Below, piece after piece: positions 3,001 through 6,000 of a DNA stretch of 17,342 bases; position 1 is the first letter of the stretch; the number at the start of each line of letters is the position of its first letter. Source of the stretch: a virus (Duplodnaviria > Heunggongvirae > Uroviricota > Caudoviricetes); the IMG/VR virus record IMGVR_UViG_2534681835_000036; one strand, given 5' to 3'. Position numbers: made by a program.

Positions 3001-6000
3001 CCCACGTGCACCGGTGGATAACCCTCTGTGTTCAGCGTCACACGGTAATACCCGGGCTCCACATCCATACTGTAACTGCCGTTTTCTCCCGGCTCTCCCT
3101 CTGCCACGGTGGTAACAATCACCGTCTCCGTCGTCCGCAGGGCTTTGAGTTCAATCGTGCATCCAGGTACCGCTTTGCCGGTGCCATCTTTAAGCACGCC
3201 AGAAATTTTTACTGTCATACTCTTCCACCAATAATAAAAAAAGCCCGCAGCAATGATGCTACGGGCAGACTAAAACCGTCGTATTTTGGCCGTCAGAATT
3301 TAAAACCGATGCCTGCACCAAAGCCACTGGCATGCCACTGACCATAACCTGAATATTCGTATGTCACATCAATAACAACGGTTTCGTTCAGGTTAAACTG
3401 CCCTCCCACCGCCCCGGCGAAAGATATTTTACTTTTGCTGTAACGTTTATCCCCCAATGGTTCACATTTACTGCCTTTGATATTTTTACTGATTTTCAAA
3501 TCCGCAGAAAATTTTGTCATGCCAGCACCAGCCATTGCATAGAGACTGGCATACTCATTAACCCGCCATACCGGCCCTGCCAGGAAACTCCGGTAACTGG
3601 CAATGATATCAGTCCTGGCTGATACATGGGATGTTGCCTCTCCGGCCCCGGCGGGATGAATATCAGCTATGGATTTTGCACTGGTTTTTGAGCGTACCCA
3701 GGTAAAAGAACTCATCACACCCAGCTTATCCGTTATTTCATAACGATACCTGACGTTTATCCCCTGCAGTGGCTTATCGTTTCCCACATAATTGCTGAAA
3801 CCACCATTATCATTTTCCCGGGAATGAAAACCGTCATTTACAACCTGTTCAAGTGCCATTCTGTTATAATCAGACCTGTTTTTCACAAAATTTTTCAGAC
3901 CGGACACATGAAGCCAGACATACCCCTGCGACAACGTATGCTCCCCCTTTGCAGCCCACGACATCACGGGAAAGAAACTCATACCAGTAAAATAAAACCC
4001 GGCAATAAAACCTGATATTTTCATTTTAATACCCAGCCATAATTAAACAGAACAGATTCGATAATGCATCACATGCTGTTTACGCATAAAATTAACTGAC
4101 CATCAAAATAAACTATCTGCACAGTGATTTAATCATATTTTGATGTATCAATAACAAGAACCTGTCTGGTATAGGATTTACGCACATCCCAGGTGACATT
4201 ACTCGAATACCATTCCCCGTTATATATCTGATTTCCCGTTGCCCCCGTCATGGTGACATATACAGGCCTGTCATAATCTGTTCGTCTGTAATTATATACG
4301 CCAACCATTGCAGGCATGATTGCACACGGATACCCCATGTTAATTGAAAACTGGACATCAACATTAACCAGTTTTGCATCAAGCGGCATCATCTCGCCAT
4401 GATAAATCATCTCTCCGTTTTTATTATACATGGCAATACCATAACCAGAATGCGGTAACACCATATCGGAAAAAGCATAAACAGTAATTGTTCCTGGGTT
4501 ACCTGATAACTGATGGAGTTTTAATGTATGCACACCACCAGACTGTTCATGTAAAAACATCATATTTGCCCTGGCGGTGCTTTTTATAAAGAAAAACACG
4601 ACTTCCCGGAAGGTATTGATGTTCTGTATAGCGCGCCCTTTGAGGCTGCCAGATTCCCCTTATTAATTAAACAGGCAGGGGTAAATTCCGGGCTCAGCCA
4701 TACACTTCCATCCGGCTGTGTAATACTCATTCCATGCATGCTCACCTCCAGAATGTATAAATATATGAACCTAATCCCTGATACAGGTTTGACCAGCGAA
4801 CCGTGTTACCTTCAATAACAATCTGAGGAGACGGAATATTTATATGATTATCATTATTCAAAGGCATTAATGAACATACAGCACACAATGACTTTCCCCG
4901 TGGTGGATCTGCGTATGTTTTTGAGCCTGACGATGCCGTGAATCTATCAAGAAAAAATATCGGAGTGAGAAACCCGCTGATATCCCTTCCTTTGCCATCA
5001 TAAACAGAATAACCGTATCCCATATCACTGCTCCTGAAGAATGAACATCAGAGTTTCCCCATCCGGACACGCAGCACACCATTCTGATCATACACATCGA
5101 TACGATCGCCGTTAAAAGTCATGCGCCCACCGTCATTACTGCTGTTAATTTCCAGTTTTCCGTTACGTGAAAAACGCCAGCCGGGTGATCCGGATTTAAA
5201 ACCATCAGACTGGATCTCACCTGTAATACTGGCAAAATCAACAATCAGCGATTTCATCAGAACATCATTCAGGAACAACTGATTCCCCTGCGCCACAAAT
5301 AACGGCGTGGTGTTGCCGTCCTGCGGGTTAATCATCGCTATACGGTCAGCCTGCAGCAGTATGTTGCTCAGGGGCTGACCATCAACATCCTCAATCCCCG
5401 CACCTATCCCGGCCACATAGGGAATACCGTCTTTCGTTTTCTGTACCTTCAGCATGTAGAGTGCAGCCAGGTCATCATTTGTGTCCGTCTGCACGCGCTG
5501 TATCTGCTGTATGGTGGCGCTCTGGCTCTCCAGCGTTTTACTGACCGTCTGTGTGATTTCATTGCGGGTTTCGGTGATGGTGGTCTGCATTTCCGCCATC
5601 TCATCTGCAAGCTGGCTGTTATCTATCAGCTCCCACAGCCCCTGAGCCAGATGCAGTTTTCCTATTTTTTCCCGGAAAAGTTCCAGATAGCCCGCAGCAT
5701 CATTGCTCGCCCGTCCACTGGCTTCCACAAAAGCAGATTTACCCACCAGGTTGACGCTGCGCACATAAAACCAGAAATCCTTTCCGGGCTTAATGTGCGG
5801 ACCGGAGACACTCCACTGACTGCCGGTCCCCAGATAACGGGCAGAGGTTTCCACCTGTGCGGCGTCTGCAATTTTTGCCTCCGAAAACCAGAACTCAAAC
5901 TGCACCGTCGGGTCATAAATGGTCAGTTTCGGGACTGCCGTTATCTGAAAATACCCCGGCGTCAGTTCAATGGTGGCGGGTTTTGCTGGCGCGTTAATCC

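Follow-up and report, generated by a model that had tools for sequence, protein, structure and literature searches.

A candidate two-gene receptor-binding module downstream of a lambda-type J gene in an Escherichia coli prophage

The C-terminal domain of J, the central tail fiber protein of phage lambda, binds LamB, and lambda lom, like bor, is an autonomous moron with its own promoter and terminator. Here we analyze the region between J and lom in a lambda-like prophage of Escherichia coli, contained in a 17,342-nucleotide stretch of viral DNA (Caudoviricetes; IMG/VR record IMGVR_UViG_2534681835_000036), the whole of which we call the window. J of this prophage is followed by two minus-strand genes, one for a 93-amino-acid protein (open reading frame 1, ORF1) and one for a 203-amino-acid protein. 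We argue that the two genes probably encode a separately encoded, virion tail-tip receptor-binding module for the central fiber.

Modules of this kind have been described in other phages. In a computational study, Matusiak et al. 2025 (PMC12309495) predicted spikes without a binding domain in Dhillonvirus JLBYU60, in phi24B and in a Pseudomonas phage, and proposed that two proteins, a small 'Ig-like' one and a 'hand-like' one, cap such spikes, with a Lom-like gene in third position. For phi24B, cryo-EM and proteomics found gp54 (204 amino acids) at low abundance in the virion proteome and left density at the needle tip unassigned, and a gp54/gp55 complex was proposed to bind BamA (bioRxiv 10.64898/2026.04.10.717836). 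In the Shiga toxin (Stx) 2 phage Sp5, the homologues ORF72 (ECs1234, 92 amino acids) and ORF73 (ECs1235, 205 amino acids) were deleted individually (PMC5155283). A receptor-binding protein (RBP) that recognizes LptD has been solved for Oekolampad/Rtp44 (bioRxiv 10.1101/2025.07.07.663478; PDB 9rpt), and a 2026 receptor preprint calls the FhuA-, BtuB-, possibly BamA- and LptD-linked RBPs unrelated families. What is new in the window is the union of such a module with a lambda-type J in a long-tailed prophage.

Two genes between J and lom

The region comprises the following features:

5048..8122, minus strand: J, central tail fiber / tip attachment protein, 1024 amino acids (Pfam FNIII-A_GpJ, Phage-tail_3, Ig_J, Ig_J_second, Phage_Tail_Tip)
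5048..5470, minus strand: C-terminal tip of J, last ~140 amino acids, ...GWRFSRNGKLEINSS...IDVYDQNGVLRVRMGKL (blastp); proposed docking site for the downstream proteins
4742..5023, minus strand: ORF1, 93 amino acids from an ATG, predicted small beta-sandwich protein (PHROG 557)
4129..4739, minus strand: gene for the 203-amino-acid 'hand-like' protein, proposed RBP, here split into ORFs of 51 and 144 amino acids (PHROG 425)
4584-4739, minus strand: ORF2, 51 amino acids from an ATG, or 53 from a GTG at 4745
4129-4563, minus strand: ORF3, 144 amino acids from an ATG, or 156 from a GTG at 4599
4592..4596, minus strand: frameshift site, a T5 homopolymer (T6 in intact copies), from alignment to near-identical chromosomes
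3293..4024, minus strand: lom, outer-membrane beta-barrel of the Lom/Ail family, 243 amino acids, third gene of the block (Pfam Ail_Lom, E 3e-25)
3243..3266, minus strand: intrinsic-terminator-like hairpin (10-bp stem, 7 GC pairs, T run) that closes the J-ORF1-203aa-lom transcription unit

A sequence-only reading of this DNA had noted three minus-strand ORFs after J, in three frames and each preceded by a Shine-Dalgarno-like motif (AGGAG, GGAGGTGA and AGGG), and had called them AT-rich. The coordinates bear out the arrangement and the composition, with a GC content of 0.411 for 4129-5023 against 0.594 for the body of J and 0.534 for the whole window. The low-GC block extends beyond the three ORFs, to lom (0.448) and the last 150 codons of J (0.50). 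ORF1 begins 24 nt downstream of the J stop at 5048, with AGGAG 7 nt before its ATG; its TGA lies only 2 nt ahead of the ATG of the 203-amino-acid gene, and GGAGG stands 9 nt upstream of that same ATG. A consensus scan of the minus strand over 3200-5400 found a single terminator-like site, at 3266-3243 after lom, and none between J and lom; promoter-like sites numbered 5, against 6.5 ± 2.6 in shuffled sequence, and so showed no excess.

The proposed cassette of three genes proved to be one of two. By megablast, the region matches 2 of 5426 complete E. coli genomes at the nucleotide level, namely the chromosomes of the O111:H8 strain 8E (CP077465, 99.9% identity) and of FHI_NMBU_11 (CP045712, 99.6%), and it matches no phage record; wider comparison therefore needed searches at the protein level. 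Both chromosomes are one base longer, with T6 where the window has T5 in the minus-strand run 4592-4596. With T6, ORF2 and ORF3 become one coding sequence of 203 amino acids, annotated as intact by PGAP (WP_033800934.1). ORF2 and ORF3 are two halves of a single gene broken by a 1-nt deletion in the T run, so the AGGG ahead of ORF3 is gene-internal, and ORF1 is a genuine separate gene. A programmed frameshift joining ORF1 to the 203-amino-acid gene was considered, but the junction has a strong GGAGG and an ATG and lacks a slippery site, and separate translation would be simpler. The +2 offset between the two genes is kept in four of four lineages checked.

It is possible, if not the explanation we prefer, that the module is dead in the window genome, the frameshifts here and in the side-tail-fiber gene stf being real and the ORFs pseudogene fragments of a decaying prophage. 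The same T5 occurs in GenBank contig AIGJ01000049.1 of the E. coli DEC8E draft, to which the window is identical, as well as in a contig assembled by Logan from run SRR094977, which may or may not be an independent sample; a second 1-nt homopolymer indel (A5 versus A4, near 2593) breaks stf; and in the unrelated sample SRR29167809 (Logan) the run is T6 but a further run ten bases downstream is A6 rather than A5, which also breaks the 203-amino-acid gene. Indels thus recur in the tract T6-C-TTT-ATA-A5 (window 4575-4600), for which error and natural slippage are both possible sources. Against decay, these two homopolymer indels are the only differences between window positions 1-6811 and strain 8E, with zero substitutions over 6.8 kb, which is the signature of homopolymer sequencing error. 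T6 is present in the two chromosomes and in three further assemblies that span the run, and the intact 203-amino-acid sequence is found on 197 public contigs, compared with one long and one short contig for the frameshifted form. We conclude that the run was probably misread in sequencing, or else that the gene was inactivated recently. A dead copy would in any case be compatible with a receptor-binding role for the intact gene.

The break in stf (window 1628-3218) is a 1-nt insertion in an A run near 2589-2593 that divides the gene, 529 amino acids and intact in CP077465, into ORFs of 221 and 438 amino acids. Both indels strike host-recognition genes.

Protein families, fiber tip and predicted folds

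Each of the two proteins, for which the sequence-only reading had recognized no family, matches a PHROG family over its full length. ORF1 matches phrog_557 (E 2.2e-24, residues 1-93 to positions 1-92 of 100 in the profile) and the 203-amino-acid protein matches phrog_425 (E 3.2e-70, residues 1-203 to positions 3-224 of 224); Pfam and NCBIfam gave no match for either. PHROG labels the first family 'outer membrane protein' and the second 'membrane associated protein', the latter filed under 'moron'. Neither protein has a signal peptide, a lipobox or a hydrophobic segment (maximum Kyte-Doolittle means over 19 residues, 0.81 and 1.11), and judged by their sequences the membrane annotations are without basis and the families misnamed. 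With no such segment to carry it, neither protein can reach the envelope as Cor, Llp and Rtp45 do. PADLOC-DB holds no family that matches either protein at E <= 0.01.

By tblastn, the adjacent pair is present in ~280 phage genomes at 40-75% identity, and ORF1 homologues, 57-74% identical, lie directly upstream of a homologue of the 203-amino-acid protein in 278 phages. This conservation argues that the ORFs are not chance. Identities for the large and the small protein are 62% and 58-65% in short-tailed Stx phages (933W L0126/L0127, Sp5, phi24B), 75% and 66% in Nonagvirus JenP1 and JenP2, 41-44% and 48-52% in Tempevirinae (tonijn, swan01, SECphi27, Bas04), and about 75% and about 74% in SSU5-like phage-plasmids (CMS-2020a, PhiR41_1). 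The small gene lies directly upstream of the large one, and the pair beside the central fiber gene, in the window, 933W, JenP2, tonijn, Bas04 and Bas06; the last four of these have it next to the J-like gene, on the opposite strand. SSU5 itself has the pair within its tail module, with Cor next.

The GenBank start of 933W L0126 (75 amino acids, VLTP...; 6768-6995 in the 933W sequence) is probably too far downstream, as tblastn aligns ORF1 residues 1-92 in related Stx phages and Sp5 ORF72 has 92 amino acids. The '75-aa gp55' of phi24B may share this mis-annotation.

The NCBIfam model lambda_TipJ matches residues 1-989 of the window J to model positions 1-987 of 1163, and PGAP flags the identical gene in CP077465 as 'missing C-terminus'. 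Because the match stops at position 987, the LamB-binding domain of lambda is absent from this J. In its place the protein ends, by sequence comparison, in a short conserved tip. In blastp searches, the J-like proteins of Bas04 and tonijn share, at their C-terminal ends, 33-35% identity with the last 144 amino acids of this J (E 1e-17 to 1e-18), and that of JenP2 aligns through its C-terminal end (30% over 356 amino acids, E 1e-46); the 933W needle L0125 aligns to J residues 701-1024 (E 8e-17) and ends ...IEVYDQNGRLAVRIGRL. The tip region was found in 1735 phages by tblastn. The earlier view had been that the ORFs are an insertion between J and lom at a known moron site. Since J lacks the lambda C-terminal receptor-binding domain, the comparison indicates instead that the covalent binding domain of J is replaced by a tip and two separate genes.

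AlphaFold2 models both proteins as all-beta, the 203-amino-acid protein with a predicted local distance difference test score (pLDDT) of 86.7 and a predicted template modeling score of 0.82 (16 homologues) and ORF1 with a pLDDT of 78.7. The predicted fold of the larger protein, two lectin-like beta-sandwiches, is shared with the solved LptD-binding RBP. Searched against BFVD with Foldseek, it recurs in uncharacterized phage proteins of 200-330 amino acids from phages of Pectobacterium, Proteus, Providencia, Xanthomonas, Acinetobacter and Pseudomonas. Sequence searches of the PDB with the 203-amino-acid protein, the 93-amino-acid protein and a single-chain relative returned nothing useful.

Such single-chain relatives are among the 79 found by an exhaustive HMMER search, which include ~315-amino-acid proteins that align to the 203-amino-acid protein from about their own residue 105. 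With hhalign, the family of the larger protein matches residues 99-307 of these proteins at 99.5% probability (E 4.5e-22) and the ORF1 family matches residues 16-77 at 59% (E 9e-5). A tblastn search with the fused protein gave, in the split phages, hits in two collinear stretches, one for each gene. This profile evidence and collinearity suggest that the pair corresponds to the single-chain protein of Pantoea and Pectobacterium phages, and that the split into two genes in E. coli phages is ancient and conserved. The sequence-only reading had offered, as an alternative, a single gene of ~300 amino acids broken by two frameshifts. One frameshift does join ORF2 to ORF3, and one intact gene of ~315 amino acids does exist in the distant Pantoea and Pectobacterium relatives, but the boundary between ORF1 and the 203-amino-acid gene is a conserved two-gene arrangement in the ~280 phages and the genes are split in E. 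coli phages.

A motif GYGxxxYxxxG occurs in ORF1 and in both halves of the 203-amino-acid protein. The idea that it marks three paralogous domains was dropped, as hhalign of the ORF1 family against the family of the larger protein found only a match of 14 columns at 1.4% probability.

Receptor recognition and competing explanations

We compared the loci of four BASEL Tempevirinae, of which Bas04 and Bas06 are BtuB-dependent and Bas05 and Bas07 FhuA-dependent. The Bas04 and Bas06 loci encode a lipoprotein, a protein of ~92 amino acids and one of 204, the last two being a pair of the PHROG 557/425 type whose large protein is 41-42% identical to that of the window. The Bas05 and Bas07 loci encode proteins of ~102 and of 197 or 223 amino acids, together with a 75-amino-acid lipoprotein. 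The FhuA-type pair is remotely homologous to the window pair (large protein, E 3e-9 and 8e-8; small protein, E 5.5e-4), and so the two modules look, from these matches, like one superfamily.

In the lytic Tempevirinae, loci of the BtuB type and of the FhuA type alike have a small lipoprotein gene as the third (MKKLIAV...LTGC; the two types 34-36% identical, E 2e-9 and 6e-8), found at 5451-5720 in locus L006, 6452-6727 in L005, 20545-20814 in L009, 6986-7213 in L010 and 6526-6753 in L011. Those of Bas04 (Bas04_0025) and tonijn (gp18) begin MKKLIAVIATVAALTGC. They are probably cognate superinfection-exclusion factors. The window has no such lipoprotein gene, and lom occupies that position.

A BtuB-type RBP has been defined by >30% identity over >99% coverage (bioRxiv 10.64898/2026.04.02.716166). 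The 203-amino-acid protein of the window is 41-42% identical to Bas04_0023 and Bas06_0024 over its full length, above that formal threshold. This identity is unevenly spread, at 48-53% for residues 1-125 and only 26-31% for the C-terminal third (residues 126-203). The same C-terminal third is 81% identical to that of JenP2 and 63% identical to that of 933W. The low identity of this part makes it doubtful that BtuB specificity extends to the window allele, which by its C-terminal third groups with the JenP2 and 933W/phi24B type; given that grouping, BamA or another protein would be a more likely receptor than BtuB.

From these comparisons we infer incorporation of the pair into the virion, its stoichiometry there, which protein touches the receptor and what that receptor may be. 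In the mechanism that we propose, J of this lambda-like prophage would have lost the lambda-type C-terminal receptor-binding domain and would carry the short conserved tip instead. The 93- and 203-amino-acid proteins would be made from the late tail transcript, their translation coupled through the TGA/GGAGG/ATG junction, and both would assemble non-covalently on the J tip. There the 203-amino-acid protein, with its two predicted beta-sandwiches, would contact an outer-membrane protein through its variable C-terminal domain, and the 93-amino-acid protein, as the equivalent of the N-terminal domain of the single-chain relatives, would serve as the adaptor to J. Next in the same transcription unit, lom would be a gene apart.

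Several observations weigh against this mechanism. In Sp5, neither ORF72 nor ORF73 is among the nine genes essential for plaque formation and lysogenization of K-12 or the two reduced-infectivity genes (PMC5155283), which means that in the laboratory that podovirus does not depend on the pair as an RBP. In the BASEL phages the association with receptor specificity is a correlation, and the equivalence of ORF1 to the N-terminal domain of the single-chain relatives is, at 59%, only moderately supported. Sequence homology to the Oekolampad RBP was looked for and rejected: hhalign gave a probability of <1% with the family alignments of the 203-amino-acid protein, of ORF1 and of the single-chain ~315-amino-acid proteins, which leaves a likeness of fold only. 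In the window genome itself, the 203-amino-acid gene is frameshifted. SSU5-like phage-plasmids are an exception to the adjacency of the pair to tail genes. In those of E. coli the pair lies outside the tail module, in an accessory region with RNase H, Dam, ORF6N, Fic/Phd and type I restriction-modification genes. Among four phage-plasmid loci, whose pairs are 74-78% identical to that of the window, lom follows the pair in two (L020 and L021), and genes for 158 (L019) and 561 (L023) amino acids follow it in the others.

Some of the same observations would fit a virion or assembly accessory that does not bind a receptor, such as a cap or chaperone with a part in J-tip stability, in the gating of DNA ejection or in a wider host range, with terminal receptor contact made by the J tip itself or by side fibers (stf and a Gp38-like adhesin, encoded farther downstream on the transcript, at lower window coordinates). 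The Sp5 homologues are dispensable on K-12, where the lateral fiber gene is essential, gp54 is of low abundance in phi24B virions, the prophage also has the stf fiber and the Gp38-type adhesin, and the 2026 receptor preprint associates the C-terminal tip of GpJ itself with specificity. We nevertheless find an accessory role improbable: the predicted fold is that of an RBP encoded at the same locus and proven by experiment, the protein family switches with the receptor (BtuB versus FhuA) between similar phages with nearly identical J tips, and the C-terminal domain is the variable part (26-31% identity against 48-53% for the rest), as expected of a surface that contacts a receptor.

Very improbable is a lysogenic-conversion moron, in which the pair and lom would be a mobile cassette kept for the benefit of the host (exclusion, defense or surface modification) and absent from virions: it would suit the low GC of a block that adjoins lom, the non-essential Sp5 homologues, the filing of PHROG 425 as 'moron' and the phage-plasmids in which the pair and lom or another gene sit in accessory regions beside toxin-antitoxin and restriction-modification genes, but neither protein has a signal peptide, lipobox or transmembrane segment or a PADLOC match, the pair lies next to J in strictly lytic Drexlerviridae and Nonagvirus, a separate lipoprotein gene would take the exclusion role in those lytic phages (Warwickvirus, Hanrivervirus), the predicted fold is that of a solved RBP, gp54 is found in phi24B virions, promoter-like sites are no commoner than in shuffles and no terminator follows J. 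The superinfection-exclusion or defense cassette proposed by the sequence-only reading is not supported, on the same grounds. Its appeal to receptor biology beside the tail tip holds in spirit, although the genes look like the receptor binder itself and not like a blocker.

Within the receptor-binding explanation, we consider a more specific version unlikely: the window allele would bind the essential protein BamA, as proposed for gp54-gp55 of its closest characterized relatives, 933W/phi24B (62% identical, same C-terminal subtype), and 'J tip + small + large + Lom' would be a portable cartridge for host recognition. If this were true, the cartridge would move between podoviruses, lambda-like siphoviruses, lytic Nonagvirus phages and phage-plasmids; the FhuA-, BtuB-, possibly BamA- and LptD-linked RBPs would form one structural superfamily with split (~95 + ~200 amino acids) and fused (~315 amino acids) members; and the Lom-family barrel might, from a position that belongs to Cor or Rtp45 in the other modules, act as the cognate exclusion factor.

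Neighboring features and known systems

After stf, a 170-amino-acid protein (window 1025-1537) has the N-terminal domain of a T-even-type Gp38 adhesin (PF21721, E 6e-20), and the prophage therefore has a second, independent host-recognition system. Positions 1950-3000 of stf have a GC content of ~0.70 and encode collagen-like Gly-X-Y repeats; two direct repeats of 129 nt lie within it at 2024-2152 and 2267-2395, 243 nt apart. Between tail genes K and L, an AT-rich block at 9730-11325 (GC about 0.42-0.47) is absent from the similar prophage of strain 8E. It encodes a 348-amino-acid P22-type antirepressor on the minus strand (P22_AR_N and P22_AR_C, E 1e-39) and a divergent 114-amino-acid Arc-like ribbon-helix-helix protein (E 2e-20), and looks like an immI-like ant/arc module inside the tail operon. 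From about position 9656 upward (window 9656-12060), comparison with strain 8E shows a mosaic, with 97% identity in L and, for the tape-measure gene (1080 amino acids here), no match at the nucleotide level to its 2646-nt counterpart in 8E.

If our reading is right, the labels 'outer membrane protein', 'membrane associated protein' and 'J missing C-terminus' are a widespread mis-annotation that hides a host-range determinant of E. coli prophages. It would also mean that a lambda-type J can bear a detachable receptor-binding module of the sort that T1-like, Nonagvirus and 933W-like phages carry, and hence that host recognition may be exchanged as a cartridge across tail morphotypes. The intact prophage of O111:H8 strains would offer a long-tailed, genetically tractable relative of the module of Stx phages. 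For the window alone the practical message is modest: a known type of module and, probably, a homopolymer sequencing error.

Traversvirus 933W, Sp5 and phi24B carry the same three genes in the same order (L0126-L0127-lom, that is, phi24B gp55-gp54-Lom) directly after the fiber or needle gene, with identities to the window of 58-65% for the small protein, 62% for the large one and 49% for Lom, and the window J and the 933W needle L0125 have one and the same motif at their C-terminal ends. These phages are short-tailed podoviruses with a needle of 422 amino acids, whereas the window comes from a long-tailed prophage with a lambda-type J of 1024 amino acids; the Sp5 homologues are dispensable on K-12.

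The BtuB-type Tempevirinae Bas04 and Bas06 share the same two families at full length (large protein 41-42%, small protein 48-52%), and their pair also lies beside a J-like gene whose tip is homologous to that of the window J. They differ in being lytic, in having the pair on the strand opposite J and in a lipoprotein gene that is absent from the window. The 'Ig-like' and 'hand-like' proteins of JLBYU60 and of Bas05/Bas07 (PMC12309495) are arranged as in the window, with a spike that lacks a receptor-binding domain, proteins of ~100 and ~200 amino acids encoded on the same strand as J and a Lom-like or exclusion gene third. Their homology is remote (Bas05_0024 against the 203-amino-acid protein, E 3e-9; Bas05_0023 against ORF1, E 5.5e-4), and they are only 22-29% identical; FhuA, the receptor proposed for the Dhillonvirus/Bas05/Bas07 pair, differs from that proposed for the window type, and the proposal of capped spikes is purely computational.

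The Oekolampad/Rtp44 RBP occupies the same locus, downstream of a J-like gene and next to a gene for a 73-amino-acid lipoprotein, and at 321 amino acids it is similar in total length to ORF1 plus the 203-amino-acid protein (296 amino acids), but it is one polypeptide, not two, and is partnered by the exclusion lipoprotein Rtp45, which is absent from the window. Exclusion lipoproteins of the Cor/Llp/Rtp45 type have a hydrophobic N-terminus and a lipobox cysteine, and neither window protein has either hallmark. In T5, pb5 on pb4 is a separately encoded RBP that caps a fiber; its sequence is unrelated and its gene lies elsewhere in the T5 genome. The C-terminal domain of lambda J does the job proposed here for the pair, which is to recognize the receptor at the very end of a trimeric central fiber; in lambda that domain is covalent, and in the window J, where it is missing, the adjacent pair would take its place.

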